Shown here: in pieces, positions 481-61,592 of the stretch
How positions within the stretch are numbered: the first letter of the stretch is position 1
How the letters are laid out: each line of letters opens with the position of its first letter
Program-made: the position numbers and the translations under genes
Origin: an uncultured virus (IMG/VR IMGVR_UViG_3300029258_001230)
Lineage: Duplodnaviria > Heunggongvirae > Uroviricota > Caudoviricetes
Reading direction: 5' to 3' (one strand)
DNA: 64,000 nucleotides
IMG/VR virus record: IMGVR_UViG_3300029258_001230
The notes under the pieces: generated by a model
Database searches by the model: none
Seen by the model: the letters and a program-made list of their open reading frames with translations, nothing else
Told to the model about the DNA's origin: nothing

Positions 481-562
481 TAACACCGAAATAACCGCCG
501 TGCGAAGCCATGGCGAGTTATACGGTGTTAAAGAGCGTTGCGGAACTAATGCGAATTATTTT
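481..562 (+). repeat. Conserved attC-like double-hairpin repeat, copy 1 of 7
   Basis: TAACACCG-AAATAAC...GTTAT-ACGGTGTTA followed by second hairpin GCGTTGCGGAACTAATGCG and a T-rich tail. Confidence 0.9.
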
Positions 563-585
563 GGAAAACACACAAAACACATAAA

Positions 586-945
586 ATGAATATATTAAGA
601 GTATCAAAAACAGTAAAACCAGATCGTGAATTAAGCTACGATACAGTAATCGGTATAGCAGAAGGTAATCCACCTATTAACGTGCTAGCAAAACATATAG
701 AAAGCCGTATAGGATTAAGTTCAAAAGTAAGAAAGCACGATGAAGATACGTATAGGGTTACTTTTACAAGGCTTATTAATTGGAGCGAAGAGAACAAGCG
801 AGAGGTGGTCGAGGAATGCAAGAACTTTAACTCTATGTTTAATACTGATTTTTGCCCTATTCGATTTATAAACGGGGAGAAAGAATATGATAATGATCGT
901 TTCTTTTATGCAGAAGTAATTATACAAACATCAATAATTCAATAA
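586..945 (+). CDS. hypothetical protein
   Basis: 119-aa ORF with AT-rich leader. Confidence 0.7.
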   Translation: MNILRVSKTVKPDRELSYDTVIGIAEGNPPINVLAKHIESRIGLSSKVRKHDEDTYRVTFTRLINWSEENKREVVEECKNFNSMFNTDFCPIRFINGEKEYDNDRFFYAEVIIQTSIIQ

Positions 946-1308
946 CTTATGGAGAATTTTAGAACTAAAAAGCTTTACAGGGTAACGGGAGTCGTAGGCG
1001 TTTTGTCCTATGTGTTAATAATGGGTATATATGTGCTTTTAACTATTGATCTATGGTAGTATTTGTTATGAGTTCAACCGCAAAGGATTCCAGAGGAGGT
1101 ATAAGACAAACACTTACTCTATCATGTAATATAGATAATTTCATTAAAGCATTAGGCTTAATTGAGGGATTTGAAAAGAAGTATTCAGGTAAAGGATTTG
1201 AGGTGAAAAACAGAACTGAATTATGTTGTTTTTGAAAAATCGCATAGGGCAAAACAGGCTTTTTTCAGTGCTTTTTATAGCGTTTTTGGGTCAGAGCCAA
1301 AAATCGGG

Positions 1309-1420
1309 TAAAGCATTGATAAACAAAGGTTTAAGATTTTTAGACTCGTCTAAAAATAAAGTTAGACTCGTCTTTACATATTTGTTAGACGTATCTAACA
1401 AATTAATTAACACCTTGATT
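1309..1420. promoter_or_regulatory. Three TAGAC-core palindromic sites flanked by two IHF-consensus sites
   Basis: TTTTTAGACTCGTCTAAAAA (1337), TAGACTCGTCT (1363), TTTGTTAGACGTATCTAACAAA (1381); WATCAANNNNTTR on the minus strand at 1309-1321 and 1408-1420. Confidence 0.6.
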
Positions 1421-1500
1421 TGCAATAGTTTACAAGGGTGTTTAATTAAAAATAAAGGACTTAAAATTGTACCAATCGCATTTACATACGAAAAATAAAT

Positions 1501-1734
1501 ATGAAAATCAAGAAAGGAGCAGACTTAATTGACTATATAGAAGAAAAAAGATTAAAACAAAATATTTCTATTGAAAGAATATCAAAAGTTGTCAACATAC
1601 ATAAAACAACTTATTATCGTTTCTTAGATAAGTCATTCGCTGGAAGAAAACTTAAAAACCTAGATGTTTTTTTAGATATTGCAAGGGAATTAGATTTGGA
1701 AATAACAATAAAAAGTGTAAAAGATGAAAATTAA
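1501..1734 (+). CDS. XRE/Cro-family HTH transcriptional regulator
   Basis: EEKRLKQNISIERISKVVNIHKTTYYRF fits the HTH_3 pattern; ends IARELDLEITI. Confidence 0.8.
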   Translation: MKIKKGADLIDYIEEKRLKQNISIERISKVVNIHKTTYYRFLDKSFAGRKLKNLDVFLDIARELDLEITIKSVKDEN

Positions 1735-2029
1735 GTTTAGATTAAGATTAAATGAACATAGTTTTGGAAAATACCAAAAAGGAGACGAAGATGACTTCTA
1801 TATTAATGTATTTGATGAAAGTAATGGTCTTGTTAGATACCCTATACATAGTAGATGGGATATAGTTTCTTTTGAGATAGTAGAAGGAGATGAAGGAGAG
1901 ATGTATTTAAGTAAAAAAGAGGTTATGGATTTTTACCTATGGATGCAGAAGAACGAATACGATCACAATATTCCTTCCAGAGTGGAAAAGAAATTAAATA
2001 AGTATATTAGTGAGGCAAAAACACAGTAA
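1724..2029 (+). CDS. hypothetical protein
   Basis: ORF overlapping the upstream stop, operon context. Confidence 0.7.
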   Translation: MKIKFRLRLNEHSFGKYQKGDEDDFYINVFDESNGLVRYPIHSRWDIVSFEIVEGDEGEMYLSKKEVMDFYLWMQKNEYDHNIPSRVEKKLNKYISEAKTQ

Positions 2030-2031
2030 CC

Positions 2032-2214
2032 ATGGAAGCTTTAACAGTAAAAGAGTTGATTGAGCAATTAGAAAACTTTGATAAAGACAAAGAAGTTCAA
2101 GTTAGTGCAGTTGGTATTTCAGGTAAGGACAGTTGGAATACACCACTTAATTTAGAAGAGCTTACAGTCGATGAGTTTAAAGGAGTAGTTAGAATAAACT
2201 TTAGTCTTTATTAA
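2032..2214 (+). CDS. small phage protein
   Basis: LTVKELIEQLENFDKDKEV N-terminus is common in small phage proteins; stop lies in the TAAC of an attC-like site. Confidence 0.75.
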   Translation: MEALTVKELIEQLENFDKDKEVQVSAVGISGKDSWNTPLNLEELTVDEFKGVVRINFSLY

Positions 2215-2273
2215 CGAGTAGTGTATGTAGTCGGATTTTTCCGATAGGAAAATATGCGACATACATACTGTTA
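2212..2273 (+). repeat. attC-like hairpin
   Basis: TAAC...GTGTATGTAGTCG...CGACATACATAC...GTTA with inner hairpin TTTTCCGATAGGAAAA. Confidence 0.8.
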
Positions 2274-2614
2274 GGTTTAGTTTTTAAATTAAATTAAATT
2301 AAAATAAAATATATGAGAGAATTTACTTGTGCAATGGGTGAAGTTGTTGATTTAGATAATGATAAAACATACAACCATTTACCTAAAACTGCTAAAGAAT
2401 TAGATAAATTAATGTTCGCTGAAATAGGTATGGCATTAGTTTACACTAAATATTTCTATCCCGATTGGGATAAGAAACAATGCTATAGGATACATAAATT
2501 AATAGAAGGTTTTGCTAAAGAAAGAAAAAATAACTACGGCAACGTAAAATGGTTGAGAGAGCAAGTGTTTATTTTTCAAGACGAAACTGAAAATATGTGC
2601 TAATTAAACCTAAC
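2270..2614 (+). mobile_element. Integron-like gene cassette carrying ORF 2313-2603
   Basis: Begins GTTAGGTTTA and ends TAAACCTAAC (10/10 complementary); one ORF inside. Confidence 0.75.
2313..2603 (+). CDS. hypothetical cassette protein
   Basis: 96-aa ORF filling the cassette. Confidence 0.75.
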   Translation: MREFTCAMGEVVDLDNDKTYNHLPKTAKELDKLMFAEIGMALVYTKYFYPDWDKKQCYRIHKLIEGFAKERKNNYGNVKWLREQVFIFQDETENMC

Positions 2615-2690
2615 ACCGTAATAATCATAGTGCGAAGCATTGTGATTATGGAGTGTTAAGGAGCGTTCCGAAGGAAATGCGAACTATTTT
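2611..2690 (+). repeat. Conserved attC-like double-hairpin repeat, copy 2
   Basis: TAACACCGTAATAATC...GATTATGGAGTGTTA plus GCGTTCCGAAGGAAATGCG. Confidence 0.9.
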
Positions 2691-2702
2691 AAGCGAAAAA
2701 AA

Positions 2703-2936
2703 ATGAAAAAAGGAGATAAAATAATATGGGATAGTGGTTTTGGTTATGAGATAGGCTATTTTATCGAGGACTCTGAAAACAAAATGTATAACTCTTTTAA
2801 GGTAGAGTTGATTACAGGAGTAGTTCAAGAAGAAACGCTAATAAGCAAGGATGAGATAATTCCATACACCAAGGAGAGTCAGGAGCAAATGAGTAATAAG
2901 TATGGTTATTCTAAGGCTTTTAGTGAAATATTTTAA
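2703..2936 (+). CDS. hypothetical protein
   Basis: 77-aa ORF. Confidence 0.7.
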   Translation: MKKGDKIIWDSGFGYEIGYFIEDSENKMYNSFKVELITGVVQEETLISKDEIIPYTKESQEQMSNKYGYSKAFSEIF

Positions 2937-2982
2937 ATAATAATTATTTTTTTACTATATTAGAAACACAAACACAAATAAC

Positions 2983-3348
2983 ATGGAAAAATACATTAAA
3001 TCACAACAGAGTATTGAGGTTAAGAAGCATTTTAACAAGAACCAATCGGATAAAGATATTTCTTCAAAGGTATTATCGTTAAGAGTAGATTCTGAAACAG
3101 CTGAAATAGTTGATAAGAATTGTAAAGAAGCAGGGGTTTCTAAGAATAAATATTTGTCTGAATTAGTTACTGATAATAATTTTAAAATTAAAAAAGGTCA
3201 GAGAGTAAGGGTTAGAAATTCAGAAAATTCAGATTATTTAGATAGAGTTTTTGCTTTTTACGATCCAAAAAGAAAGCTGTACGTATGTGAACCGAGTTTA
3301 GAGGGAAGTACATTGTATTACGGTTACGAAGAGTGCTTGTTTGATTAA
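2983..3348 (+). CDS. Ribbon-helix-helix DNA-binding protein with extra C-terminal domain
   Basis: LSLRVDSETAEIVDKNCKEAGVSKNKYLSELV fits the RHH pattern. Confidence 0.65.
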   Translation: MEKYIKSQQSIEVKKHFNKNQSDKDISSKVLSLRVDSETAEIVDKNCKEAGVSKNKYLSELVTDNNFKIKKGQRVRVRNSENSDYLDRVFAFYDPKRKLYVCEPSLEGSTLYYGYEECLFD

Positions 3349-3350
3349 TT

Positions 3351-3776
3351 ATGAACCAGAAAACTCATAAAAAGTGCAAATCTTGTGGTAAAGATTTTCG
3401 GTTGTTTAAGACTACGGACAAGTTCTGTTCGTTTAAATGTGTTCCAGATAAGGAAATTCAAAAAAGAACAATAAACAAGGTGTCGAATAAACAGAAGGAA
3501 TTTGATTCAGAATACGAAAAGAATAGAAAGGCATTAATCAAAGAGATTTTTGATAAAAACGGGAAAATCATTTGTGAAAGATGTTATACTGATAAGTCAA
3601 TAATGTTTTCCACTCATCACATAATGTTTAGAAGTGAATATCCAAGGCATCCAATGTTACATAGCAGGGATAATTTAATTCATTTGTGTTATGATTGCCA
3701 TGAGTATTATCACGATAAGAAGAGTAATAGAGATAGTTTAGTAAAAGAGAGAGGTTTAATTGAAAAGTTCAAGTAA
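3351..3776 (+). CDS. HNH endonuclease (NinG-like) with N-terminal zinc finger
   Basis: CKSC...CSFKC; CERC...STHH...NLIHLCYDCH. Confidence 0.8.
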   Translation: MNQKTHKKCKSCGKDFRLFKTTDKFCSFKCVPDKEIQKRTINKVSNKQKEFDSEYEKNRKALIKEIFDKNGKIICERCYTDKSIMFSTHHIMFRSEYPRHPMLHSRDNLIHLCYDCHEYYHDKKSNRDSLVKERGLIEKFK

Positions 3777-3777
3777 T

Positions 3778-3969
3778 ATGAAATGGATATTTGTAACACT
3801 ACTAATTATACTTTCAATATTATCATCATGTACTAAATGTACTTGCCCTAATAAAGAGAGCAATATTGTTATAGATAAAGGAATAAACTTCTATACAATC
3901 GAAACGGATTCTTTCATTTATATTATAGATAAGGTAACTGGAGAGTTAAGTAACATTTTAAGAAAGTAA
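3778..3969 (+). CDS. putative small lipoprotein
   Basis: MKW + hydrophobic stretch + LSSC lipobox; ATG at 3778 preferred over the track start. Confidence 0.55.
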   Translation: MKWIFVTLLIILSILSSCTKCTCPNKESNIVIDKGINFYTIETDSFIYIIDKVTGELSNILRK

Positions 3970-3970
3970 G

Positions 3971-4150
3971 ATGGTTGATCCAAAGAATAGAAAGTCTGAT
4001 TACGTTTGCATTGATTGTGGAGTTAAGTATTTGCATGAAAGTCAAAAGAGCAAAAAACAGTCTGTAACTTTCTTCATGGATGAATGTGGTATTTGCTCTA
4101 ATTTCAAACCTGTTACACATATAAGAGTGTATAACTATTTAATTAAATAA
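3971..4150 (+). CDS. small zinc-finger protein (not in ORF track)
   Basis: Manual translation MVDPKNRKSDYVCIDC...ECGIC..., 59 aa. Confidence 0.65.
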   Translation: MVDPKNRKSDYVCIDCGVKYLHESQKSKKQSVTFFMDECGICSNFKPVTHIRVYNYLIK

Positions 4151-4158
4151 TAAAAAAA

Positions 4159-4674
4159 ATGAAAAACCAAAAGCATCACATATATTTCAAAGAATGTACT
4201 CAGGAGTTCATTACTCTTCCGATAAATACGCCTAACTGTTATTATCTAGGAGAGTTTACTTTTAAAGAACTAGACAATCTTCATGATCTTGTCGAGTCAA
4301 AACCTATATCTTATAATGATTTATTAAAACACATAAACAATAACTCGGTGTCTCCAGTGATAAGTAAAGTAGACGAAATAAGAAAACAAGCAGAATCCTT
4401 TTACAGAAATAAATACCCAAAAGTGAATGAGTTAAGTTTCTCAGATAATCTTATTATTGATATAATGACAGATTTTATGTACAAACACAAAGTTAAATTT
4501 AATAAAGTTGATTTAGATGATGTTATACCTATAATGGATAAGATAGATAAGTGTATTAGCGATGAATTAGAATATTCAGCAGGTTACACAGAAGAAGAAA
4601 TGGCTAAAATATCTGATGCAGTAGAAAGGATTAAAGATGTTGCAGATGAAAATTGGATGCTTGTCAGGAATTAG
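4159..4674 (+). CDS. hypothetical protein, possibly a fusion across a cassette junction
   Basis: 171-aa ORF; internal GTTATACCT at 4522 pairs with AGGCATAAC at 4673. Confidence 0.65.
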   Translation: MKNQKHHIYFKECTQEFITLPINTPNCYYLGEFTFKELDNLHDLVESKPISYNDLLKHINNNSVSPVISKVDEIRKQAESFYRNKYPKVNELSFSDNLIIDIMTDFMYKHKVKFNKVDLDDVIPIMDKIDKCISDELEYSAGYTEEEMAKISDAVERIKDVADENWMLVRN

Positions 4675-4677
4675 GCA

Positions 4678-4738
4678 TAACGTATGGTAATATGGTTAAG
4701 CGATAGCGACCCGATAGGGTTAACTATATTACGTGTTG
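4678..4738 (+). repeat. attC-like hairpin
   Basis: TAAC...GTAATATGGTTAA...TTAACTATATTAC...GTTG. Confidence 0.8.
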
Positions 4739-4840
4739 TACACTGTATGGCGACTTAACAGAACGAAACTTAAATCGAAGCACAGAAGTAGTATTTATTT
4801 TTTGTGCGGTGGTAAATATTAATTTGAAAAATTAAAACTT

Positions 4841-5461
4841 ATGACAAAATTTAGATTAAAAAAAGAATACCATGAATCAGTTAAAGAACTATTTCACGAT
4901 GACTATGCAAATAAAATAATTAACCTAAAAGAAAGCCAAGAGTTTTTTGTAGATAGAGGATTTCCTTTAGATAAAATTGAGAAGGTTAAAGAGATTACAC
5001 CGATTGAAGAATTGATAAATGTTCTTAGTATCCGATTCAAAGAAGTTGCTAACAATAATGCTATTGATAAAGAATACTGGATTGAAAAAGCAAATAAATT
5101 TAGGTGCGATTCGATTATAGATATACTTAGAGTATTTGTGGATTATGTAAATAAAAAACAACCTTCTTACGGGCATATTCCAGATGAGTGGATAAGAGAT
5201 TTTGCAGTAGAAGATAATGGTGAAATAGTTTATAAAAGTAGTGGCGATGATTATAGTAAAGGGCTAGATGATGGGATAGAGTATGCACGTAGTTTGAATC
5301 CTAAAAAAGCATGGGATATTATATATGATAGCCTACCAAGTTATCAAACAATTCATGAGTTATTAGAAGGAGAAGAATTGACAAGGAAGGAGTTTACATC
5401 TTTTATTGATGGTGCTAAATGGTTTAGAGATTATTTACAAGAACAAATTATAAAGGAGTAG
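4841..5461 (+). CDS. hypothetical cassette protein
   Basis: 206-aa ORF with a FIDGAKW motif typical of small phage proteins. Confidence 0.75.
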   Translation: MTKFRLKKEYHESVKELFHDDYANKIINLKESQEFFVDRGFPLDKIEKVKEITPIEELINVLSIRFKEVANNNAIDKEYWIEKANKFRCDSIIDILRVFVDYVNKKQPSYGHIPDEWIRDFAVEDNGEIVYKSSGDDYSKGLDDGIEYARSLNPKKAWDIIYDSLPSYQTIHELLEGEELTRKEFTSFIDGAKWFRDYLQEQIIKE

Positions 5462-5463
5462 TT

Positions 5464-5751
5464 ATGGAAAATAAAATTAGATGGGTAGCAGAAGCGTATA
5501 ATAAGGATGCTTATCAATGGAATGTAACACCAGAAAGACTATTAAACGAAGAGGTAGAAAGATTGTCTAAAAACTCTTCAATAAAGGAAATTAAACTTGA
5601 AGATGCTACTGATATAGGCGATGACTTAGTAAAAGTTTACAGAGGCTATAACTATAACGGAGAATTGATTTATCAATGGCTCGCTAATAGTGTTAATGTT
5701 GGATATTTTACTAATGAAATGACAAAAGATTATGAACGAAAAGAATTATAA
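5464..5751 (+). CDS. hypothetical cassette protein
   Basis: 95-aa ORF in operon. Confidence 0.7.
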   Translation: MENKIRWVAEAYNKDAYQWNVTPERLLNEEVERLSKNSSIKEIKLEDATDIGDDLVKVYRGYNYNGELIYQWLANSVNVGYFTNEMTKDYERKEL

Positions 5752-6031
5752 AAACTACTTAGACAATATTGTAACTGAATGTTTTAATAATCATTTGAGT
5801 TCTTTAGAATGGGATGAAAATGACCCAATTCAAAAAGCTATGTATTTAAGATTGCATGATGCTTCAAAACAGCTTTTAAGAAAAATGAAAGCAAAAGTAA
5901 TTAATACTTCACATTGCAAAATTGATGCTTATGCTGATGATGATTGGTGTAATAATTATCAAAGTAGAGTTAATTGTGATGGTTGTAATTTCTGTTTAAC
6001 AAGTGGTTGTTCGGAAATTCCGAACTCATAA
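5732..6031 (+). CDS. hypothetical Cys-rich cassette protein
   Basis: C-terminal WC...CDGCNFC...C. Confidence 0.7.
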   Translation: MNEKNYKNYLDNIVTECFNNHLSSLEWDENDPIQKAMYLRLHDASKQLLRKMKAKVINTSHCKIDAYADDDWCNNYQSRVNCDGCNFCLTSGCSEIPNS

Positions 6032-6111
6032 AAAGCGAGGGGAAGAAAAAATAAATACGGTATGATTAGCACCAACTTTGATACGAGAACGGAACTAAGC
6101 CATATTGTGTA

Positions 6112-6203
6112 CAACAGATTACGGCTATGAATTGAAGCCGTATAACAAATGATTGATTCAAAGAAATAACCTTAACAACGGCTTTTATTTATAGCCATTG
6201 TTA
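6112..6203 (+). repeat. attC-like hairpin
   Basis: CAAC...GGCTATGAATTGAAGCCG...CGGCTTTTATTTATAGCC...GTTA. Confidence 0.8.
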
Positions 6204-6385
6204 GCAACTTTTAAAATTATGGATGACGAAATAACAATAAACCTAAGAGCCTTAACTGAGCGACAAAGAAATAACCTTGCAAAGGTATTAGACCAAGCCT
6301 TGAATGATATTGAAGATGAAACCAACGAAGTAGCATTAGAAACCCTACAAAAATTTGTAGAGGAATAATTTTTATTGTTGCTAAC
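6200..6385 (+). mobile_element. Minimal gene cassette carrying a 49-aa ORF
   Basis: GTTAGCAAC...GTTGCTAAC (9/9 complementary). Confidence 0.75.
6219..6368 (+). CDS. small acidic cassette protein (not in ORF track)
   Basis: MDDEITINLRALTERQRNNLAKVLDQALNDIEDETNEVALETLQKFVEE. Confidence 0.65.
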   Translation: MDDEITINLRALTERQRNNLAKVLDQALNDIEDETNEVALETLQKFVEE

Positions 6386-6462
6386 ACCGAAATAACCTCC
6401 GTTTTAATGGAGGGTTATGTGGTGTTATGAGCCGTTGCGATAGCTAATGGCGTTTTCTTTTT
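6382..6462 (+). repeat. Conserved attC-like double-hairpin repeat, copy 3
   Basis: TAACACCGAAATAACCTCC...GGAGGGTTATGTGGTGTTA plus GCCGTTGCGATAGCTAATGGC and T-tract. Confidence 0.9.
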
Positions 6463-6504
6463 AAGAATTAATCACTATATTTAATCACACAAACAAAACA
6501 ATAC

Positions 6505-6657
6505 ATGATTTTAGAAGAAGCAATAAAGATTTTAGATAATCACCAAAAGTGGAGAAGAGGCGAAATAGAAGATTGGGTTTCTACCCCTAAAGAGTTAGGA
6601 GAGGCTATTGATTTGATTCTCACAACCCTCAAAAACAATAACCAACAGGAGGGATAG
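6505..6657 (+). CDS. small phage protein (not in ORF track)
   Basis: MILEEAIKILDNHQKWRRG...PKELGEAID, 50 aa, after a CACAAAC leader. Confidence 0.7.
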   Translation: MILEEAIKILDNHQKWRRGEIEDWVSTPKELGEAIDLILTTLKNNNQQEG

Positions 6658-6658
6658 C

Positions 6659-7309
6659 ATGAAAGAACTACTAAGAAGTATATATCTTTACAATAAAACC
6701 TACTATAAGGTTTGGGTTCATATTTGGGTGTTCTCAGATTCAAAAAACGTATTTGATTTTACTTATTCGGAACTATCTTCCGTTTTGGGTATTCCAGAAA
6801 CAACAATAAGAAGAGCTATTGATAAGATATTCAGAGCATGGAATGATGATGGCAGAACTTTAGTAGAATTTGAAAAATCAGAAAACGGATCAAATCAAAT
6901 TAAATTATATCCAAAAGGAAAGCCTAAGTCTAAGTTTTATGAAATTCACGATGAAATGTTCGATTGGGTTAAAGTTTGGTATAAAAAGAATGATTATGAC
7001 TATTTAGAAATCGGGAGACATAAAAAGTATATTCGATTAATATCAGACAAGATTAAGAAGTCAATGATTGAAAGAACAAATCAAGAGCCAAACGATGAGG
7101 GTGTATTGAATAGCTTTCAACTGTTTTTTGAGAACATTCCCGATTGGTGGATTAATCAAGGTCAGGCTACTTTGAATAAAGTAAATAAGAATTACGATAC
7201 TATATTGAATCAAATAAAATCTAAAAATGGAAAAAAACGAGATAGCTACCAAAAGTCAAGTGAGCAAGTTGGAGAAGTCGATTTTACCAAGCTTACCGAG
7301 AACGACTAA
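6659..7309 (+). CDS. putative replication initiator (N-terminal HTH)
   Basis: FTYSELSSVLGIPETTIRRAI HTH; overlaps the downstream gene as in O/P-like pairs. Confidence 0.55.
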   Translation: MKELLRSIYLYNKTYYKVWVHIWVFSDSKNVFDFTYSELSSVLGIPETTIRRAIDKIFRAWNDDGRTLVEFEKSENGSNQIKLYPKGKPKSKFYEIHDEMFDWVKVWYKKNDYDYLEIGRHKKYIRLISDKIKKSMIERTNQEPNDEGVLNSFQLFFENIPDWWINQGQATLNKVNKNYDTILNQIKSKNGKKRDSYQKSSEQVGEVDFTKLTEND

Positions 7310-8036
7310 TAAGATAATCGAAACTCACAGAACGCATAAAAAAGTAAAGGACTTTTCCGAATCTGATTTTGCAGGTCTTTACAAAAGTCTTTTGGCTATA
7401 TGTAAATTGGTTGGGATAAAGGACGCTCCAGACAATTCTGTAATGCTTCTTCTTTTAGAACACATTAAAGTTCATCATATAGATTTTTCAACAAAGGAAA
7501 TTGAAATAGCTTTTAGTATGGCTTCGGCAGGTAAGTTGGATTTTGACTTCGAGCCTTACAACAAGATGACTCCTCAATTAATATCCAAAACTTTAAACTC
7601 ATATAAAGAAAAAAGGAATAAAAGCCTAGTTGAAGTATCAAGACAAATAGATAAAGCCAATCGGGAGAAAGTAAACAGTTCCGTTAAAACTAATGACTCA
7701 ATGGCTATTGATTATATTGTTTCCGTTTATGAAAAGTATAAAAAAGAACAAGAAAAATCAGAGCCAGACCATGCCGTTTACAGAGATTGGGGAAATAAGA
7801 TTTACCATTTTTTAGACATGAAGGGCATTGTATCGTTCTCGAAAGATAAAAAGAAAGACGCTATGGAACGTGCAAAAGCAATCGTTTCTAAAGAGCAGTT
7901 TGAATCAGATGTTAGGTATAGCTTTGAGAAATCAGATAATAAAACAGTTGTAGAAGCAAAGAACTTATTAGTTCAGGAGTGGTTTAAGAACGCTTGCGAA
8001 ATGGATGTTAACATTCGGGAGTTGATAAAGTTGTAG
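7227..8036 (+). CDS. putative replication accessory or helicase-loader-like protein
   Basis: Follows the initiator; EIEIAFSMASAGKLD segment resembles Bacteroidota phage replication proteins. Confidence 0.45.
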   Translation: MEKNEIATKSQVSKLEKSILPSLPRTTNKIIETHRTHKKVKDFSESDFAGLYKSLLAICKLVGIKDAPDNSVMLLLLEHIKVHHIDFSTKEIEIAFSMASAGKLDFDFEPYNKMTPQLISKTLNSYKEKRNKSLVEVSRQIDKANREKVNSSVKTNDSMAIDYIVSVYEKYKKEQEKSEPDHAVYRDWGNKIYHFLDMKGIVSFSKDKKKDAMERAKAIVSKEQFESDVRYSFEKSDNKTVVEAKNLLVQEWFKNACEMDVNIRELIKL

Positions 8037-8099
8037 TATTTTTTTTGCGAAAACGCAACGATATTACTATATTTACACAATAATAAAACACACAAACAC

Positions 8100-8312
8100 A
8101 TGATTAATTTAAGTATTGAAGACTCTTTAAGCGAGTTAAAGCAAATCAACATTGAGATTGATAAACTAAACACAGAAATCAATGCAAAAGGTCTTGATTC
8201 TCCAGAGCAAAAAGTTAATGCGAAGCATGATATTTTAAGATTGGGTAGCCTTTTAAAAGATAAAGAGTTTTTGAACTATTGTTTAACCTATTTACTTACA
8301 AACAATGGATGA
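8100..8312 (+). CDS. hypothetical protein
   Basis: 70-aa ORF directly after CACAAACAC. Confidence 0.65.
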   Translation: MINLSIEDSLSELKQINIEIDKLNTEINAKGLDSPEQKVNAKHDILRLGSLLKDKEFLNYCLTYLLTNNG

Positions 8313-8433
8313 AGAAGAATTAGTGTCAGAAATGATCGTTGAATTAGCTGGTGAGTATTTGGAAGTAGATAGTAGTCAGCTAAAATACTTAAAGAAAGAA
8401 ATAAAGACTGAGTTAGTCGATAGCGATAGTTAA
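8305..8433 (+). CDS. small acidic protein (not in ORF track)
   Basis: MDEEELVSEM...DSDS, 42 aa; stop is the TAA of TAAC at 8431. Confidence 0.55.
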   Translation: MDEEELVSEMIVELAGEYLEVDSSQLKYLKKEIKTELVDSDS

Positions 8434-8476
8434 CGATAAAGCTAACGGCTTTTTTAATTGCCGTTAGGATGTGTTA
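8431..8476 (+). repeat. short attC-like hairpin
   Basis: TAAC...CTAACGGC...GCCGTTAG...GTTA. Confidence 0.75.
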
Positions 8477-9251
8477 GCCACAGTTTTATTAAAAAAAATA
8501 AAAAATAGAATTATGAAATATATGGGAAGTAAAAATAGGTTTGCAAAAGAATTGCTACCTATAATTTTAAAAGACAGAAAACCTAATCAATGGTATGTTG
8601 AGCCATTTGCAGGAGGTATGAATATTATTGATAAAGTAAATGGTAATAGAATTGCAAATGACAATAACAAGTATTTAATAGCCTTATGGAAAGGAATACA
8701 GACTAATGAAAGCAGACCAACCGAAATAAGCAAAGAATTTTATAGTGATGTAAGAGATTGTTTTAATGGTAAAAACTCTAAATATAATGACTTCACAATA
8801 GGTTGGGTTGGTTTTATGGGTAGTGCAAACGGACGTTTCTTTGAGGGTGGTTATAGCGGAAAGTCAAATACCAAAAACGGAATAGTAAGAGATTATATTG
8901 CAGAAAGTATTCGCAATATAGAAAAGCAAATACCAAACTTAAAAGATATTGATTTTAGATGTAATGATTATAGAGAATTAGAAATACCTAAAAACAGTAT
9001 TATATATTGTGATATACCTTATGAGGGAACTAAACAATACTCGACAAGTAAAGGCTTTAATCATAAGCATTTTTGGGATTGGGTAAGAAGTACTACACTT
9101 AAAGGACATAAAGTGTTTGTAAGCGAATACAAAGCACCGAATGACTTTGAATGTGTTTGGGAAAAACAAGCAAAAAGTAGTTTAAGTGCCAACGGTAAAA
9201 TTGGAGGTAATAAAGTAAGCACAGAGAAACTGTTTGTTTATTGTGGCTAAC
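8473..9251 (+). mobile_element. Gene cassette carrying a Dam-like methyltransferase
   Basis: GTTAGCCAC...GTGGCTAAC (9/9); gene stop lies inside the terminal TAAC. Confidence 0.75.
8513..9250 (+). CDS. D12-class (Dam-like) N6-adenine DNA methyltransferase
   Basis: MKYMGSK, YVEPFAGG (motif I), YCDIPY (DPPY-like motif IV); likely start is ATG at 8513. Confidence 0.9.
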   Translation: MKYMGSKNRFAKELLPIILKDRKPNQWYVEPFAGGMNIIDKVNGNRIANDNNKYLIALWKGIQTNESRPTEISKEFYSDVRDCFNGKNSKYNDFTIGWVGFMGSANGRFFEGGYSGKSNTKNGIVRDYIAESIRNIEKQIPNLKDIDFRCNDYRELEIPKNSIIYCDIPYEGTKQYSTSKGFNHKHFWDWVRSTTLKGHKVFVSEYKAPNDFECVWEKQAKSSLSANGKIGGNKVSTEKLFVYCG

Positions 9252-9328
9252 ACCGAAATAACCATCGTTCGCAGAATGATGAGTTATGGAGTGTTAAAGA
9301 GCGTTCCGAAGGAAATGCGAACTATTTT
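9248..9328 (+). repeat. Conserved attC-like double-hairpin repeat, copy 4
   Basis: TAACACCGAAATAACCATC...GATGAGTTATGGAGTGTTA plus GCGTTCCGAAGGAAATGCG. Confidence 0.9.
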
Positions 9329-9352
9329 AGAAATTTTAAAATTAAATATAAA

Positions 9353-9892
9353 ATGAACTGGAAAGATTATAAACAAGAAGCAAAAAGAACATGGGCTAAC
9401 TTTAGCGAGATCCATAAGATTGAAAACGGAGATTTAGACAGAAGAATGGCTTTACTTCACTGCGTATTAGGTATTGAAACTGAGATTAACGAGTACAAAA
9501 AAGCTATCATCAATAATGATGAAGTAAATGCAAAAGAAGAGATTGGTGATGCGTATTGGTATTTGGCTAATTACGAATTGAGGTTTGATATACCTATAAT
9601 GAGTAAGTCCGACCTCAAAGGAGGAAGTTTGGATGATTGTGTAGAAACTGTTTTAGATTTGAGTAAAAAAGTTGTTTTCTATAAAAGTGATAAGTTTTGG
9701 GGAGAAGTTGATTTATGTATGGGGTCTATTCTTTATTATTTAGAAGATGTTGTTATGTCCAGAAGATATGATAAAGCAAGTATTTTACAAACTAACATAA
9801 ATAAACTAAAGTCTAGGTTTCCGAATAAATTCACTACTAAAGATGCTGATGAAAGAGATTTAGACAATGAAAGAAAAATACTAGAGCAATGA
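9353..9892 (+). CDS. MazG-like nucleotide pyrophosphohydrolase
   Basis: YKQEAKRT, LGIETEINE, KEEIGDAYWY, NINKLKSRFPNKF. Confidence 0.85.
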   Translation: MNWKDYKQEAKRTWANFSEIHKIENGDLDRRMALLHCVLGIETEINEYKKAIINNDEVNAKEEIGDAYWYLANYELRFDIPIMSKSDLKGGSLDDCVETVLDLSKKVVFYKSDKFWGEVDLCMGSILYYLEDVVMSRRYDKASILQTNINKLKSRFPNKFTTKDADERDLDNERKILEQ

Positions 9893-10725: not shown

Positions 10726-10740
10726 AAACACACAAACACA

Positions 10741-11424: not shown

Positions 11425-11523
11425 TATAAACATCACCTTGTTAGCAAATTAGAATGAGTAGAAGTTGTTTTTTAGCTTCTACTTTTCTATTTTTAGAGGA
11501 CACAAACACAAAAAAGTAAAATT

Positions 11524-11859: not shown

Positions 11860-11863
11860 ACTT

Positions 11864-12082
11864 ATGCGTTTAAGTGATGAACAACTGAATTACCCTAGTA
11901 ACACAGGTTTTGTTTGTTGTGTGGTATTAGAGAAAATGGACTTGGGGTGGATGGAACTTGAGGATGGGTCTAAATGTATGCCTTACATTAAGGGTAGTTC
12001 GGATAGTGATATGTATCGAGTAAATAACTGCCCTTCTTGTGGTAAGTATGTACGTGATGCAGTAATTAAATTACAAAGATAA
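11864..12082 (+). CDS. small zinc-ribbon protein
   Basis: CC...NNCPSCG. Confidence 0.6.
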   Translation: MRLSDEQLNYPSNTGFVCCVVLEKMDLGWMELEDGSKCMPYIKGSSDSDMYRVNNCPSCGKYVRDAVIKLQR

Positions 12083-13206: not shown

Positions 13207-13213
13207 TTATTAC

Positions 13214-54833: not shown

Positions 54834-55331
54834 ATGCACAAAGAAGCAAAAGAAGAGGCGATAAGGTTTTCTGAATTATATCTAAAAGATGCTGAAAATC
54901 TACAAATTTTAGACGTAGGGAGTTATAGCGTTAATGGATCGTTAAGAGAGGTTTTTGAAAAACATGGAAACTATACAGGATTAGATATTCAGGAAGGAAA
55001 AAACGTTGATATTGTAAGCCCCGTAGATAACTTTATATTTACGGATAATATGTTTGACGTTATTGTTTCTAGTAGTTGCTTTGAGCATAATATCGTGTTT
55101 TGGAAAACATTTGAAGAAATGATTAGAGTTGCTAAATCGGAAGCCTTAATTTTTATCAACACACCTAGCAGAGGTGGTTATCATGGTTATCCATTAGACT
55201 GTTGGAGGTTTTACAAAGACGCATATAAAGCGTTAGAGATGTCTAATTCTGGTAAAGTAGAGTTGTTGGAGCAAAGGTTTAATGATAAAGGGCATTGGGG
55301 CGATAATATCGGGATATTTAAAGTAAAGTAA
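54834..55331 (+). CDS. class I SAM-dependent methyltransferase (Methyltransf_11-like)
   Basis: ILDVGS...YTGLDI...FDVIVSSSCFEH. Confidence 0.85.
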   Translation: MHKEAKEEAIRFSELYLKDAENLQILDVGSYSVNGSLREVFEKHGNYTGLDIQEGKNVDIVSPVDNFIFTDNMFDVIVSSSCFEHNIVFWKTFEEMIRVAKSEALIFINTPSRGGYHGYPLDCWRFYKDAYKALEMSNSGKVELLEQRFNDKGHWGDNIGIFKVK

Positions 55332-55876
55332 TGAGAAAGGTTTATTATTCTACGCCATACGATCAGTCAATGAATATTGGAAGGTATTACAATGATTTCA
55401 TGGAGCTACTTCCAAGTGATGATTGTTGGGCTGTTTTCACGGATGGAGATGCTATGTTCTCAACTCCTGATTACGGTAGTAAGATAGAGTACATAATCGC
55501 TAAACACGGAAAAGAATACCCTTTACTAACTTCTGTTACTAATCGAATAGGAAGACCAGAACAAAGAGTAAATGGAACATGGGAAAGTAATGATTTGTCG
55601 TTTCACAGAAGCAAGGGAGAGCAAGTATGGAGTCAAAATAAAGACCTTATAGATAACGCTACTAATTACCAACCAATAGGAGGGGTGTTATTAGCACTCA
55701 ATAAAGGCAGATGGAAAAAGGTAGGGAAATTCTCTGAAAAAGGGATGTTGGGAATTGATAACGATATTCACAGAAAATTTGTATCTTTCGGAATGAAAGT
55801 GGGTATCATGAAGGGTATTTATATGATTCATTGGTACAGAGGGGGAGACGCAAAAAACAAGAAACATTTATTATAA
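55331..55876 (+). CDS. GT-A fold glycosyltransferase-like protein
   Basis: VFTDGDAMF (DxD), GGVLLA, GIDND. Confidence 0.65.
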   Translation: MRKVYYSTPYDQSMNIGRYYNDFMELLPSDDCWAVFTDGDAMFSTPDYGSKIEYIIAKHGKEYPLLTSVTNRIGRPEQRVNGTWESNDLSFHRSKGEQVWSQNKDLIDNATNYQPIGGVLLALNKGRWKKVGKFSEKGMLGIDNDIHRKFVSFGMKVGIMKGIYMIHWYRGGDAKNKKHLL

Positions 55877-55887
55877 ACCGAATAAAC

Positions 55888-56433
55888 ATGGAAAGAAAAG
55901 TTTTTTTATTAGGAAGAGCTAAATCAGGAACGAGGTCTATTGATAAAGCCTTAAATGACTTAGGGTATTCGACTCTAAACAAACACCAAGGGCTAGATAC
56001 CGATAATCTAGCACAAGACATCATTAAGAAAATGAAAAATAAAGGAGCTTTCACAGCTACCGTTAAATTTGATATTGAGCAAATAAAAGAGATTGAAAAA
56101 ACTTATCCAGAAGCCGTGTTCATTCTTACGGAAAGACCTTCTGATAAGTGGTACTCATCATGGGTGGGTCATCATTCAAGAAAAGCAACAAAAGAAAATC
56201 CCAGAACAGAAGAAACGGCTTTTAAGAATAAAGGGGCGTGGGTAGATAAGTATTACATTGAGTATAATACTTTAGTAAAAAGACATTTCCAAGGAAGAGA
56301 ATGGAAACTTTTACACATAATGTATGGAGCTAAAAATGATAATTGGGGCGCACTATGTAGCTTTCTTAAAAAGCCAGTTCCAAAAGGCGGTTTCCCACAT
56401 CAAAATAGATCGGTAGATCAAAAGAAAAAGTAA
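55888..56433 (+). CDS. sulfotransferase-family protein (Sulfotransfer_4-like)
   Basis: KVFLLGRAKSGTRS...FILTER...WYSS...WGALCSFL...FPHQN; ATG at 55888. Confidence 0.8.
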   Translation: MERKVFLLGRAKSGTRSIDKALNDLGYSTLNKHQGLDTDNLAQDIIKKMKNKGAFTATVKFDIEQIKEIEKTYPEAVFILTERPSDKWYSSWVGHHSRKATKENPRTEETAFKNKGAWVDKYYIEYNTLVKRHFQGREWKLLHIMYGAKNDNWGALCSFLKKPVPKGGFPHQNRSVDQKKK

Positions 56434-57089
56434 TGAATCGAAAAGTCATATATAGTGCTATATTTGGCAATTACGATGCGGTCAAAATACATAGTCATAT
56501 CAATAAGGAATATGACTATGTATTATTTTCTGACTCTGCTACTATATCAGCTCAATCTAGCAGGATGGATAGTTCTAATTGGACTGTTATCAATATGGGT
56601 AATGTTTCAAATCCTCGTTTATTAGCTAGAGAATTAAAAGTTTTGAATAAGGTTTTAGGTTCTTATTCGGAATCAATATGGTTAGACGGTAAATATAAAC
56701 AGATTGGAGATATTAACGATTTGTTTGAAAACGACTCAAGCTATTTTACGACTATGACTCATCCTAGTAGGAGTTGCGTATATAAAGAAGCGGAGGCTTG
56801 TGTTTCAATGGGTAGAGGGAATAAAGATGATATATTAACGCAGATAGAAAGGTATCAATCAGAAGGGCTTCCAAAAAACATCGGAATGGTTAATTCAGCC
56901 GTAATAAGGAGGTTTAACACACCTAGAGTTAATGCGATCAATGAGGGTTGGTGGAACGAGATAGAAAACGGAAGTATCAGAGACCAAATAAGTTTTAACT
57001 ACGTTTTGTGGAAATTAAAAGAAAAAATCCATATATTCGACCATAACAAACTTAAAGGAGTTCTTCAAGAACACAAACATTTAATTTAG
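56433..57089 (+). CDS. DUF616-family glycosyltransferase
   Basis: IYSAIFGNYD...WLDG...HPSRSCVYKEA...RDQISFNY. Confidence 0.8.
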   Translation: MNRKVIYSAIFGNYDAVKIHSHINKEYDYVLFSDSATISAQSSRMDSSNWTVINMGNVSNPRLLARELKVLNKVLGSYSESIWLDGKYKQIGDINDLFENDSSYFTTMTHPSRSCVYKEAEACVSMGRGNKDDILTQIERYQSEGLPKNIGMVNSAVIRRFNTPRVNAINEGWWNEIENGSIRDQISFNYVLWKLKEKIHIFDHNKLKGVLQEHKHLI

Positions 57090-57094
57090 ACAAT

Positions 57095-57736
57095 ATGAAA
57101 AGATGGGACATTATTAATTCTTATATCCATAAGGAAGGGTATTCTACGTATTTAGAAATCGGTTTGCAGTCTGGAATTTGCAGAGATAATATACAGATTC
57201 CAAACAAGAATAAAACCACGGTAGACCCTGATGAAAGGTCAAATAACCCAACTCACAATATGACTTCTGATGAGTTCTTTGAGCAAAACGACAAGACTTT
57301 TGATGTGATATTCATTGATGGATTACACCATGCAGAACAAGTGTTTAAAGATATTGAAAATGCCTTAGAGGTGCTTAATGAAGGTGGGACAATATTTTGT
57401 CATGATATGCTTCCAATTGAAGAGGTGCAAGCTAAAGTTCCGAGAGAAACGCAAGTATGGAACGGTGACTGTTGGAAGGCTTGGTATAAGTTAAAAGGTA
57501 CTAGAGACGACTTAGATATGTTCGTTATTGAAAGAGATTGGGGTGTTGGTGTTATTAAGAAAGGTTCTCAGGAAGTGGTCAAGGAATTAGATATTCCAAT
57601 GAGTGAAATGACTTGGTCTTTCTATATGGAGCATAAAAGAAAAAACACTATTGGAAAAATAGATGGGAAAGAATTTAAGAATCACAACCCAGAGTTCTTT
57701 AATGATCCGAAACTATTTAAACCAATGAATAGATAG
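57095..57736 (+). CDS. class I SAM-dependent methyltransferase (Methyltransf_24-like)
   Basis: YLEIG...VDP...FDVIFIDGLH...GGTIFCHD. Confidence 0.85.
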   Translation: MKRWDIINSYIHKEGYSTYLEIGLQSGICRDNIQIPNKNKTTVDPDERSNNPTHNMTSDEFFEQNDKTFDVIFIDGLHHAEQVFKDIENALEVLNEGGTIFCHDMLPIEEVQAKVPRETQVWNGDCWKAWYKLKGTRDDLDMFVIERDWGVGVIKKGSQEVVKELDIPMSEMTWSFYMEHKRKNTIGKIDGKEFKNHNPEFFNDPKLFKPMNR

Positions 57737-58468: not shown

Positions 58469-58595
58469 TAACGGTTACTTGTATGAGTATTAGCCGATTA
58501 GAAATTACAGAAGTATCGAATTGAAAATTAACTTAATAAATAGTAATAGCTTTAAAAACAAGCACTGCAACGGCTATTGCTTATACAAATTGTTG
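58469..58595 (+). repeat. attC-like hairpin
   Basis: TAAC...TTGTATGAGTATTAGCCG...CGGCTATTGCTTATACAA...GTTG. Confidence 0.8.
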
Positions 58596-58612
58596 TGGTG
58601 CGTTATTTAGCG

Positions 58613-58921
58613 ATGGCAAAATTTAGAAAGAAACCTGTGATTATTGAAGCAATTCAATTAAAAGAAACGAACATAAGCGAAGTGCTTAATTTTATGGGGC
58701 AAACTGTAAGATTACCATCTTTTCAAGAGCAAATGAGATTTGAGCAGTATGAAGATAGTGTCATTGAAAACGGTATGGATATATACACTTTAGAAGATGG
58801 TAGAGATGGTAGAGCGAAGCACGTAGCGACTATTGGTGATTGGATTATTAAAGGTGTTAAAGGTGAGTTTTATCCTTGTAAACCTGATATTTTTGAACAG
58901 ACCTATGAGAGCGTTGGCTAA
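58613..58921 (+). CDS. conserved phage protein (RKKPV...GDWII...YPCKPDIF family)
   Basis: Motif widespread in phages; ATG at 58613; stop inside TAAC. Confidence 0.8.
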   Translation: MAKFRKKPVIIEAIQLKETNISEVLNFMGQTVRLPSFQEQMRFEQYEDSVIENGMDIYTLEDGRDGRAKHVATIGDWIIKGVKGEFYPCKPDIFEQTYESVG

Positions 58922-59000
58922 CACCGTTATAACCTCCGTTTTAATGGAGGGTTATGTGGTGTTATGATCCGTTGCGATAGCTAATGGCGTTTTCTTTTTT
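58919..59000 (+). repeat. Conserved attC-like double-hairpin repeat, copy 6
   Basis: Nearly identical to copy 3 (6382). Confidence 0.9.
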
Positions 59001-59291: not shown

Positions 59292-59352
59292 AATACATTT
59301 GTATTTTAACAATCAAAACTATATTTTAGCACAAACACAAACATTTTAAATC

Positions 59353-60396: not shown

Positions 60397-60428
60397 TAAA
60401 CAATTTTTTTAATTATAAATCAAGTATT

Positions 60429-60896
60429 ATGAATTTCAAGTGTAAAATTTCCTACATTAAACAGAACGAAAACGGATCAGTTGTAAAAGTTAAAGAAGAA
60501 TATGTAGTTCCTGCATTGTCTTTTACCGAAGCAGAAGCGAATCTTCAAAGTATTTTAGAAAGCTATATTGCAGAGTATAACCTTGAAAGCTGTACTCCTT
60601 TAAAAGTGACAGATGTTATTTTTGGAGAGGGAGCAGATGATTTTTACAAAGCTAAGATAGATTATGTTAGTTATGATGAAGATTCTGGGAAAGAAAAGAA
60701 GATTTCTGAAACTTATTTAATCCGTTCTAACAACCTTAAAGATTGTTTACCTATGATTGAATCAAGAATGGAAGGAAGTGTTGTTAATTGGGAGGTAACG
60801 TCTGTTTCAAAGACCAATATCGCAGACGTGTTTGTTGCTGAGCAATTAAAAGAAGCTTTAGGAATGAATATTCAAGAATCTGTTGAATCAAAGTAA
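60429..60896 (+). CDS. DUF4494-family protein
   Basis: FKCKISY...EEYVVPALSFTEAEA...FYKAKI...DEDSGKEKK...TNIADVF. Confidence 0.8.
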   Translation: MNFKCKISYIKQNENGSVVKVKEEYVVPALSFTEAEANLQSILESYIAEYNLESCTPLKVTDVIFGEGADDFYKAKIDYVSYDEDSGKEKKISETYLIRSNNLKDCLPMIESRMEGSVVNWEVTSVSKTNIADVFVAEQLKEALGMNIQESVESK

Positions 60897-60898
60897 AA

Positions 60899-61126
60899 AT
60901 GGATTTAAAATGTATTGATAAGCATAAAGACGAGGACTCCGTTTTGGAGTTCTTGTCCGTTGCTAAAGAGTTTGATAACGGCATTTCGTTAGAGGACAAT
61001 GTAACTATATTAAATATGGACAGGTTTTGTAATTCAATGATTAACCTAATCAAAGCAAAACCAAGTAAGCTTCAATATGAGCTAGCTATCCAAATGTCAA
61101 AATCATTAATGGCAGAGATTACCTAA
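60899..61126 (+). CDS. hypothetical protein
   Basis: 75-aa ORF. Confidence 0.6.
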   Translation: MDLKCIDKHKDEDSVLEFLSVAKEFDNGISLEDNVTILNMDRFCNSMINLIKAKPSKLQYELAIQMSKSLMAEIT

Positions 61127-61206
61127 TAAACATTTTGTTAAAAAACAATAGGCAATTGCAGTAAAATTGAGTTTAACTTTATAATCCAAAATTAAAATTC
61201 AAGACT

Positions 61207-61368
61207 ATGGCAGAAATTCAGGAAGAGATTAAGAGATTACAGGGTAAGTTGACGGGGGATATGTTTAAAGACATGGACGTTAAACATAGAATCCATAAGT
61301 TAGAAATGAAGATGAATGGTGTGAAGCCGAATGATTCTCATTTTGAGTGCGTTGGATGTAGTGCTTAA
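61207..61368 (+). CDS. 53-aa protein with C-terminal CxxC (not in ORF track)
   Basis: ...KLTGDMFKDMDVKHRIHKLEMKMNGVKP...ECVGCSA; followed by a terminator. Confidence 0.7.
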   Translation: MAEIQEEIKRLQGKLTGDMFKDMDVKHRIHKLEMKMNGVKPNDSHFECVGCSA

Positions 61369-61392
61369 TTAATTTTAGTTTTAGTTTTTAGG

Positions 61393-61419
61393 AAAAGAGG
61401 GGTAATTCCCTCTTTTTTT
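61393..61419 (+). terminator. intrinsic terminator
   Basis: AAAAGAGGG-GTAATT-CCCTCTTTTTTT. Confidence 0.8.
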
Positions 61420-61511
61420 GTATATTAGTGTCACACAAACGTTAATAACAGGTAATTGTAATGAGACTAGAGGTCAATAGAATTGCTAATGAATGCCTTT
61501 AAATATTACAA

Positions 61512-61592
61512 TAACACCGTAATAACAAACGTCCGCAGGATGTTTAGTTATGGGGTGTTGAAGAGCGTTGCGAAGCTAATGCGAATTATTTT
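61512..61592 (+). repeat. Conserved attC-like double-hairpin repeat, copy 7
   Basis: TAACACCGTAATAACAAAC...GTTTAGTTATGGGGTGTTG plus GCGTTGCGAAGCTAATGCG. Confidence 0.9.

Follow-up and report, generated by a model that had tools for sequence, protein, structure and literature searches.

The genome of an uncultured marine virus of the Caudoviricetes (Duplodnaviria; Heunggongvirae; Uroviricota; IMG/VR record IMGVR_UViG_3300029258_001230), of which a stretch of 64,000 nucleotides (nt), here called the window, was analyzed, carries a repeated element of ~85 nt at gene boundaries. It consists of a long irregular hairpin of 50 nt (H1), a 4-nt spacer, a short hairpin (H2), and a T-rich tail. In a preliminary description of this DNA, the repeat was compared with attC sites and considered a resident recombination platform of the virus, in front of which cassettes accumulate. 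We favor a different reading, to which we assign a probability of roughly one half: the element may function at the RNA level as a cassette at which transcription stops and restarts, comparable to the promoter early stem-loop (PeSL) cassettes of T4-type phages, and may double as a recombination junction, rather than being an integron-like platform. Individual copies are indicated below by the window position of their first base.

When the window was searched for AACACCGNNATAA with at most one mismatch, seven matches were found, all of them on the + strand (at 482, 2612, 6383, 9249, 14211, 58920, and 61513). Shuffled sequence yielded a mean of 1.05 matches, and none of 100 shuffles reached seven; hence, the seven copies listed in the preliminary description are real. 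The covariance model described below detected no additional copy in the window at E<0.01. A scan of metagenomes revealed two public contigs of the same phage, one spanning window positions 21-25849 and the other overlapping the 3' end of the window (1 mismatch in 10,081 bases) and extending 10,190 bases further. This extension adds copies at the window-equivalent positions 64900 (+), 67051 (+), and 73418 (-), as well as a degenerate extra copy near 73.7 kb, which brings the total to 10 good copies in 74 kb of this phage. No copies are present between 14.3 and 58.9 kb, a region of long, tightly packed genes.

H1 starts with an outer stem, TAACAC/GTGTTA, which is followed by an internal loop with an invariant CCG on its 5' side and by a middle stem, ATAAC/GTTAT. 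Its upper part consists of a covarying inner stem, then an invariant G.U and U-A pair, and finally a small tip, which is UUUA or else a GAA or GCA triloop with a closing C-G pair. Overall, H1 is a helix of ~19-21 bp with a lower stem of 6 bp, and its internal loop is asymmetric (4 x 3 nt) and located 11-13 bp below the tip; in some copies, two positions of this loop are able to pair. H1 contains two AAC/GTT boxes, which follow each other along the stem as direct repeats. H2 is found as subtype A, GCGTT-GCGAAGC-T-AATGC, or subtype B, GCCGTT..AATGGC. The apex of H1 and H2 carry one common module, CGT..ATG, with a near-invariant G.U and a tip that accommodates inserted mini-hairpins. The consensus of the family reads TAACA(C/T)CG-nn-ATAA-stem-C-GT[UUUA or mini-hairpin]AT-G-stem' in its 5' part and (bulge)-TTAT-nnn-GTGTTA-n6-CGTT[TT or mini-hairpin]AATG, usually followed by TTATTTTTAAA, in its 3' part. 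Two known types of RNA structure were considered and rejected, i.e., a K-turn or tandem G.A pairs in the internal loop, where the positions concerned are not conserved, and an ANTAR-type dual hexaloop, as this phage has mini-hairpins in place of the loops.

On the + strand, each of the seven window copies forms two hairpins (energies from -22.9 to -31.3 kcal/mol, z-scores from -3.7 to -5.3), whereas the complement of copy 9248 folds worse (-16.8 kcal/mol, z -2.4). Covariation was analyzed in a family alignment of 28 rows that was fitted to the model and in a MAFFT alignment of 15 sequences. In the 28-row alignment, 89.1% of the paired cells can pair, as compared to 28-48% with slid partners, and 17 of the 29 pairs, comprising 90 cells, are altered on both sides; none of 500 shuffles matched the observed values. 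In the MAFFT alignment, 86.3% of the cells pair, and 11 of the 29 pairs (36 cells) are altered on both sides. Among 500 shuffles of the latter alignment, none attained the values for paired cells and covariation score, and two attained the pair count. Within the helices, there are 68 G.U or U.G cells vs. 7 A.C or C.A cells and, therefore, the coding strand is the strand that folds. The G.U pair of H2 is kept in 27 of 27 rows; at the equivalent position of H1, 22 of 26 rows have G.U and 3 have U.G. The fold noted earlier is thus real and covaries, and it is specific to one strand. Likewise, the alignments support what had been noted about shared boxes, a second hairpin, a T/A-rich tail, and the inner-stem variants CGCC/GGCG, CTCC/GGAG, CATC/GATG, and AAAC/GTTT. 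The unpaired base beside GTTAT that had been noted in six of the seven window copies is indeed absent only from copy 2611; in the family as a whole, the bulge column is filled in 19 of the 28 rows and empty in 9, which makes this base common, not universal.

Covariation fits RNA and folded single-stranded DNA alike and cannot tell between them. The apex of the copy in contig L073 is a C(UUCG)G loop. Such loops are typical of RNA, and this tip favors RNA as the folding molecule.

The orientation of the element always follows that of the flanking genes: nine plus copies lie behind plus genes, and the single minus copy lies behind a minus gene. In seven of the 10 copies, the element either begins 0-13 nt past a stop codon or includes this codon as its TAA, and the next start codon is found 92-126 nt from its first base in nine of the 10. 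It thereby fills the intergenic space from stop to next start among small genes without known function, a placement that it shares with PeSLs, and the same gene-boundary layout is seen in the element-bearing contigs of other phages. Since copy 14210 and the L073 copy are located at convergent junctions, only a role at the 3' end makes sense for these two. Copy 61512 is found ~90 nt behind a canonical terminator distinct from the element and behind a promoter-like box and, therefore, lies in a leader and not at a gene end. The possibility that the element encodes a conserved C-terminal peptide, Tyr-Cys-x, was discarded, as most copies are immediately preceded by in-frame stops. DNA methyltransferase genes directly precede three of the 10 copies (8471-9250, 13235-14134, and 63934-64890 in the extension); they are a Dam-type gene, a methyltransferase-like open reading frame (ORF), and a C5-type gene. 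In contig L124 and in Nonlabens phage P12024S, the element or the H2 module is likewise located behind a methyltransferase gene.

The position between genes and the shape of H1 would also suit an intercistronic site for a double-strand-specific RNase. Cleavage within the internal loop would then part the cistrons, and the upstream message would retain a hairpin that protects it. In phage T7, RNase III sites are found between the cistrons of early and late mRNAs, and the likeness comprises about ten conserved, irregular hairpins of ~20 bp with an internal loop between cistrons. In the phage studied here, about ten copies lie between the cistrons of early genes, the dimensions of the helix and the position of the loop are appropriate, and the surroundings of the loop are conserved. 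However, the T7 sites are single hairpins without an adjacent terminator, and a processing site would leave H2 and the copies at convergent junctions unexplained; moreover, the lower stem measures only 6 bp. Cleavage of H1 is a prediction here, and we consider it unlikely that RNase processing accounts for the element.

The sequences directly behind H1 suggest termination. A T-run of at least four residues is found within 16 nt of H2 in 16 of the 25 copies having H2; for the copies of this phage alone, the count is 9 of 10. A terminator scan picked subtype B as terminator-like at two sites. In being short, G+C-rich, and often followed by a T-run, H2 resembles an intrinsic terminator. It differs from such terminators by its conserved sequence (CGTT..AATG with G.U), by an incomplete distribution of the T-run, and by H1, which always precedes it at a fixed distance of 6 nt.

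The tail may in addition serve as a promoter. Many start codons of the phage are preceded by CTAT(A/T)TTTAG or TATATTGT, with ACACAAACAC following after another 2-9 nt. This promoter-like box recurs in subtype A tails (GAAYTATTTTR) and in most tails of other phages (TTATTTTTAAA). As described in the available part of one report, the -7 element of Bacteroidota is TAHHTTTG, transcription starts 4-5 nt downstream of it, and the -33 element is weak (PMC6847099). The recurrent boxes of the phage fit this -7 element, combined with A/C-rich leaders that lack a Shine-Dalgarno (SD) sequence. Tails matching TAHHTT[TAG] are found in 11 of 25 copies, and a -33 signal was not seen. Promoter-like consensus sites are present at 2957-2977, 6476-6497, 8062-8099, 11487-11511, 59318-59346, 61420-61441, and 62718-62748. 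Unlike this SD-less pattern, an AGGAG is present at the ATG at 2727.

Upstream of the element, a weak motif, wATTGY, is located 4 nt before AACAC, with ATTG at this position in 10 of 28 copies. Apart from this weak motif, no full promoter was found upstream of each copy, there is no -33 signal, and the position of wATTGY is coding sequence in several copies. Its constant distance from the element is one of several features that would suit a cis- or trans-acting regulatory RNA. H1 and H2 together might then form a bipartite protein-binding site with two CGU..AUG modules that operates an antitermination or attenuation switch, or the element might be produced as a small RNA of ~85 nt whose transcription would begin from the promoter-like box upstream of it. 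Consistent with such a role, unpaired bases and both G.U pairs are strictly kept, whilst neighboring pairs covary, and both hairpins contain one module with a tip tolerant of mini-hairpins. Also, copy 14210 has a full promoter-like flank, like that of site A (see below) and contig L043, with no downstream gene, and copy 61512 is located in a leader behind a terminator and a promoter. The weakness of the upstream motif and its location in coding sequence speak against this explanation, as do the lack of a protein family common to all carriers, the lack of an Rfam match, and the absence of the element from 151 Flavobacteriales genomes, which offers no hint of its use by a host system. A regulatory RNA of this kind is therefore possible but rather improbable in our opinion.

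In the reading that we prefer, i.e., a stop/restart cassette, the polymerase arriving from the upstream gene would transcribe H1, an irregular helix of ~20 bp, and then H2, which together with the U-run would constitute an intrinsic terminator or attenuator in most copies. H1 would stay at or near the 3' end, where it could protect the upstream message or, via its conserved boxes, be recognized by a protein or an RNase. Many of the T-rich tails (CTATTTTAG, TTATTTTTAAA) would double as a -7 box of the host type, and transcription could restart there with the CA-rich leader that follows. The cassettes are located in the arms of early or accessory genes. Being direct repeats of 80-100 nt with similar sequences, the copies might also act as patches of homology where phages exchange, gain, or lose the intervening genes.

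To find other members of the family, pattern scans were performed, followed by searches with a covariance model built from 15 sequences. At least ~17 further copies were detected in 14 other phage contigs, with 1-3 copies each. The carriers include G003 (40 kb, 1 copy) and G008 (69.5 kb, 2 copies), which are both rated 100% complete, with direct terminal repeats. All-against-all comparison of 14 contigs with BLASTP and phmmer revealed no protein family common to all carriers. Between the window phage and G008, there is no BLASTP match at E<=1e-5, and phmmer at E<=0.01 links one pair of ORFs, of which the window member is the HNH-endonuclease-like ORF 3351-3776. In some contigs, the element is the only sequence in common. 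In the cultured Nonlabens phage P12024S, only the H2 module is present; it lies downstream of a DNA methyltransferase gene, at a convergent junction.

The window copies contain a mini-hairpin insertion in H2 that was found in no other phage, and their mean identity is 72% among each other (two subtypes) vs. 53% to the copies of other phages. Thus, the copies were multiplied or homogenized within the lineage. Such multiplication could be attributed to a miniature mobile element that spreads by itself into gene ends, similar to repetitive extragenic palindromes with their tyrosine transposases (REP/RAYT), to IS200/IS605 hairpins, or to miniature inverted-repeat transposable elements (MITE), and the sharp edges of homology and the contigs that have nothing else in common would agree with this idea. 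However, no HUH (Y1) or other transposase was found in a Pfam scan of 127 ORFs, and neither target duplications nor terminal inverted repeats beyond the hairpin were seen; furthermore, the orientation is tied to transcription, and the other phages have no more than 1-3 copies. We regard autonomous spreading as highly improbable.

Rfam gave no matches at the gathering score over the whole window, and three weak matches at E<=5 in bases 1-15000, none of them at an element. After strict filtering and scoring of no more than 30 candidates per genome, the model detected no copy in 151 Flavobacteriales genomes, and of 22 stretches retrieved with a strict pattern from genomes of bacterial species none reached E<0.01 by the model. 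Neither megablast with a 4.8-kb stretch nor tblastn with a protein of 628 aa yielded a match in GenBank phages; copy 9248 was likewise without a blastn match in phages, and a search of viral contigs with two window proteins revealed no relatives. The host of the phage is probably a member of the Flavobacteriia, because the best matches of the Dam methyltransferase encoded in the window are in Croceibacter and Cellulophaga phages, the G+C content is ~33%, CA-rich leaders precede many start codons, and the promoter-like boxes are of the Bacteroidota type.

Comparison of related contigs showed that homology begins or ends at the element. From base 2 of the element onwards, L042 and L011 share 1,262 nt with 93.7% identity, and upstream of it they are unlike (64 nt available in L011). 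In L031 and L050, the upstream gene is 90.7% identical, after which the sequences break into 277 nt with a 50-aa ORF in one and 801 nt with a 231-aa ORF in the other; homology is back 7 nt before the element, continues through the element's end (82%), and then ends again. The window and L043 have in common a gene (81% amino-acid identity) and the region of a promoter-like site, here called site A (79.5% nt identity; Table 1), past which unrelated ORFs of 56 and 115 aa are found, both ending in an element. The site A module itself is also conserved in L043, and in both places a different hairpin follows. These leader hairpins, at 445-500 in L043 and 6112-6150 in the window, differ behind the common region; the one of L043 (AACGG..GTAACTGTC..GACAGTTAC..GGTGTT) recalls H1 in its layout. 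Thus, the variation in gene content beside the repeats that had been predicted among relatives was found in three contig pairs, and in all three comparable pairs an insertion, deletion, or replacement ends at the element, as is known for PeSLs; the breakpoints, therefore, mark the element as an island of homology at mosaic junctions. In the analysis of contigs from four DNA runs on bases 1-16000, candidate empty sites were rejected, since all contigs obtained are interrupted at the repeats and map across different copies. Apparent joints such as 205->481 and 6112->6383 are due to other copies and the inverted repeat listed in Table 1, and do not represent empty sites.

Gene exchange at a folded site with AAC and GTT boxes brings to mind the attC sites of integrons. 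As far as the available part of the source describes them, attC sites are hairpins of the bottom strand with RYYYAAC and GTTRRRY boxes, 2-3 extrahelical bases, and a spacer of 5-6 nt per arm; their tip is variable, similarity between sites is low, recognition is by structure, and IntI is found beside the array (PMC5027507). An integron additionally comprises attI and Pc. H1 resembles attC sites in its AAC...GTT outer stem, internal loop, second stem, extrahelical base on the 3' arm, variable tip, and location directly behind a gene, with the TAA of TAAC often being the stop codon. Folded as single-stranded DNA, H1 might be the site of a structure-specific recombinase that captures or excises cassettes. 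Indeed, C(GNA)G triloops are very stable mini-hairpins in DNA, G.T pairs could be tolerated in folded DNA, neighboring genes differ between relatives, and a recombinase might be supplied by the host or by a part of the genome outside the 74 kb.

However, several detailed features of attC are lacking. The Pfam scan revealed no tyrosine or serine recombinase and no HUH enzyme in the 127 ORFs over 74 kb. PF00589 was found in one of five other element-bearing records, i.e., in a 189-aa protein of G008, and is absent from the complete 40-kb genome of G003. RYYYAAC is present in 5 and GTTRRRY in none of 28 copies, and the bases that flank TAAC and GTTA are not complementary. In attC, the R box and the L box have opposite orientations, whereas the two AAC/GTT boxes of H1 are in direct orientation. 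There is one extrahelical base per copy or none. An internal loop is present but, at 4 x 3 nt, shorter than the attC spacer. Instead of low similarity, long invariant boxes are common to phages with few or no joint proteins. The element also differs from attC in having an extra hairpin with a T-run, and its folding strand is the coding strand. The second hairpin, T-run, promoter-like boxes, and transcription-bound orientation point to an RNA or regulatory role. Thus, from the proposed integron-like platform, the fold, covariation, strand specificity, and variation of neighboring genes remain, whereas the recombinase and the core consensus fell away, and an attC-like function of H1 appears highly improbable to us.

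With its two AAC/GTT boxes one helical turn apart, its bulge, and the G.U module that recurs in both hairpins, H1 could still represent a new kind of structure-specific recognition site that is common to otherwise unrelated marine phages and is worked by some factor, possibly a host enzyme. We consider this unlikely, and equally so that such a factor would switch termination or would cut and join nucleic acid at gene boundaries. If true, it would amount to integron-like trading of single genes without an integrase of the phage's own.

The stop/restart cassette that we favor finds its closest parallel in the PeSLs. In the available parts of the papers on T4-type phages, these cassettes are described at the breakpoints of insertions, deletions, and replacements (PMC2839356, PMC4122927). 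As in the present case, they are short, repeated, intergenic, and placed between the stop codon of one gene and the start of the next; they combine a stem-loop terminator or attenuator with a promoter of the host type, functions that are predicted here, and they are concentrated among small genes without known function and at breakpoints between related phages. Differences concern the phage group and the probable host phylum and, as a consequence of the latter, the promoter, which would be a -7 box here instead of sigma-70 hexamers. Furthermore, the stem-loops of PeSLs are described as simple, often with G/C tracts, and variably placed, whereas the present element has two hairpins, a strongly conserved sequence, invariant G.U pairs, and an attC-like irregular stem. 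Promoter and terminator activity, which are predicted here, as well as mini-circles were demonstrated for PeSLs.

Several observations weigh against the stop/restart reading. The T4 run is absent in 9 of the 25 copies having H2, and thus H2 does not have the form of a canonical terminator in all copies. In copies 58919 and 67051, the next ATG follows the T-run after only ~12-14 nt, and a promoter box is lacking; therefore, the genes downstream would rely on read-through. The upstream wATTGY motif equally fits an independently transcribed RNA, and the leader position of copy 61512 is at odds with a function at gene ends. A plain terminator does not account for how strictly the unpaired CCG, the TAAC, ATAA, TTAT, and GTGTTA boxes, and the two invariant G.U pairs are kept across phages with few or no proteins in common, and the conservation of H1 across phages without common proteins points to a specific binding partner. 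The count of covarying pairs derives in part from a model-fitted alignment, and copies inside one phage are mutually related. Finally, the breakpoints place the element at mosaic junctions without showing causation, and their pattern would be equally expected from homologous exchange between repeated regulatory cassettes.

Table 1. Copies of the element in the window and associated features; scores are those of the covariance model.
Feature	Position	Strand	Subtype	Score (bits)	Structure	Neighborhood
Copy 1	481-565	+	A	90.5	H1 481-530, spacer 531-534, H2 535-552, tail GAATTATTTTGG 553-564	Begins 1 base past stop of ORF 202-480; next ATG 586
Copy 2	2611-2693	+	A	84.1	Bulge absent; compensatory change in ATAAT/ATTAT stem	7 nt past stop of ORF 2313-2603; next ORF from 2703
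Copy 3	6382-6463	+	B	86.7	H1 apex GTTTTAAT; H2 GCCGTT..AATGGC, then GTTTTCTTTTT	13 nt after ORF 6198-6368; followed by promoter-like CTATATTTAAT-CACACAAAC and 50-aa ORF from near 6508
Copy 4	9248-9331	+	A	93.1		First three bases, TAA, are stop of Dam methyltransferase gene 8471-9250; next ATG 9353
Copy 5	14210-14294	+	B	88.9		Convergent junction, minus-strand gene 14403-14963 downstream; promoter-like stretch 14173-14214 before, second GC-rich hairpin 14310-14345 after
Copy 6	58919-59000	+	B	82.3		TAA is stop of ORF 58577-58921; next ATG 59013, 12 nt past T-run
Copy 7	61512-61595	+	A	96.1		~90 nt 3' of separate canonical terminator 61393-61419 and promoter-like box 61420-61441; within leader of ORF 61617-62036
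Site A	6076-6116	+			Promoter-like TTTG-N20-CATATTGTGTACAACA	Repeats the 5' flank of copy 5 (14173-14214, 42 nt)
184-nt inverted repeat	22-205 and extension 74007-74190 (L038 about 5634-5817)				Copies 96% identical	

The two copies of the 184-nt inverted repeat bracket the 74 kb, and both public contigs break exactly there. Each of them stands at the head of an arm of small genes, one rightward and the other leftward, and includes a promoter-like box as well as a CA-rich leader. The elements are located in these two arms, copies 1-5 in the one headed by 22-205. If the genome is a circle of ~74 kb, the copies of the inverted repeat would be back to back.

Between 15516 and 31708, long ORFs (817, 777, 717, 499, 846, 410, 287, and 367 aa) lie in a row and have almost no database matches; one of them contains an LPD1 domain, and its PHROG matches are families of very large proteins from phages. 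A crAss-like virion RNA polymerase was considered for this region and dismissed, as the long ORFs have no DFDxD motif and no PDB matches. The available part of the phi14:2 paper reports no hairpin signal. A cluster at 54834-57736, which adjoins the lysis region (holin 50793-51317), encodes enzymes that modify sugars or small molecules, i.e., methyltransferases, a sulfotransferase, and a TOD1/MUCI70-like glycosyltransferase. Adjacent DUF4160 and DUF2442 genes are present at 12457-13003, a pairing which we take to be a candidate toxin-antitoxin-like module.

The element represents a defined signal, for which a covariance model and at least ~27 examples from 15 contigs are available. In such phages, it delimits transcription units and lies at the places where relatives have traded genes. 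Marine Bacteroidota phages are abundant, and to our knowledge their gene regulation is almost unstudied. If the predicted activities are confirmed, a structured RNA motif missing from Rfam would be gained, and the concept of mobile regulatory cassettes would extend beyond the T4-type phages of Proteobacteria to another phage group and another host phylum.

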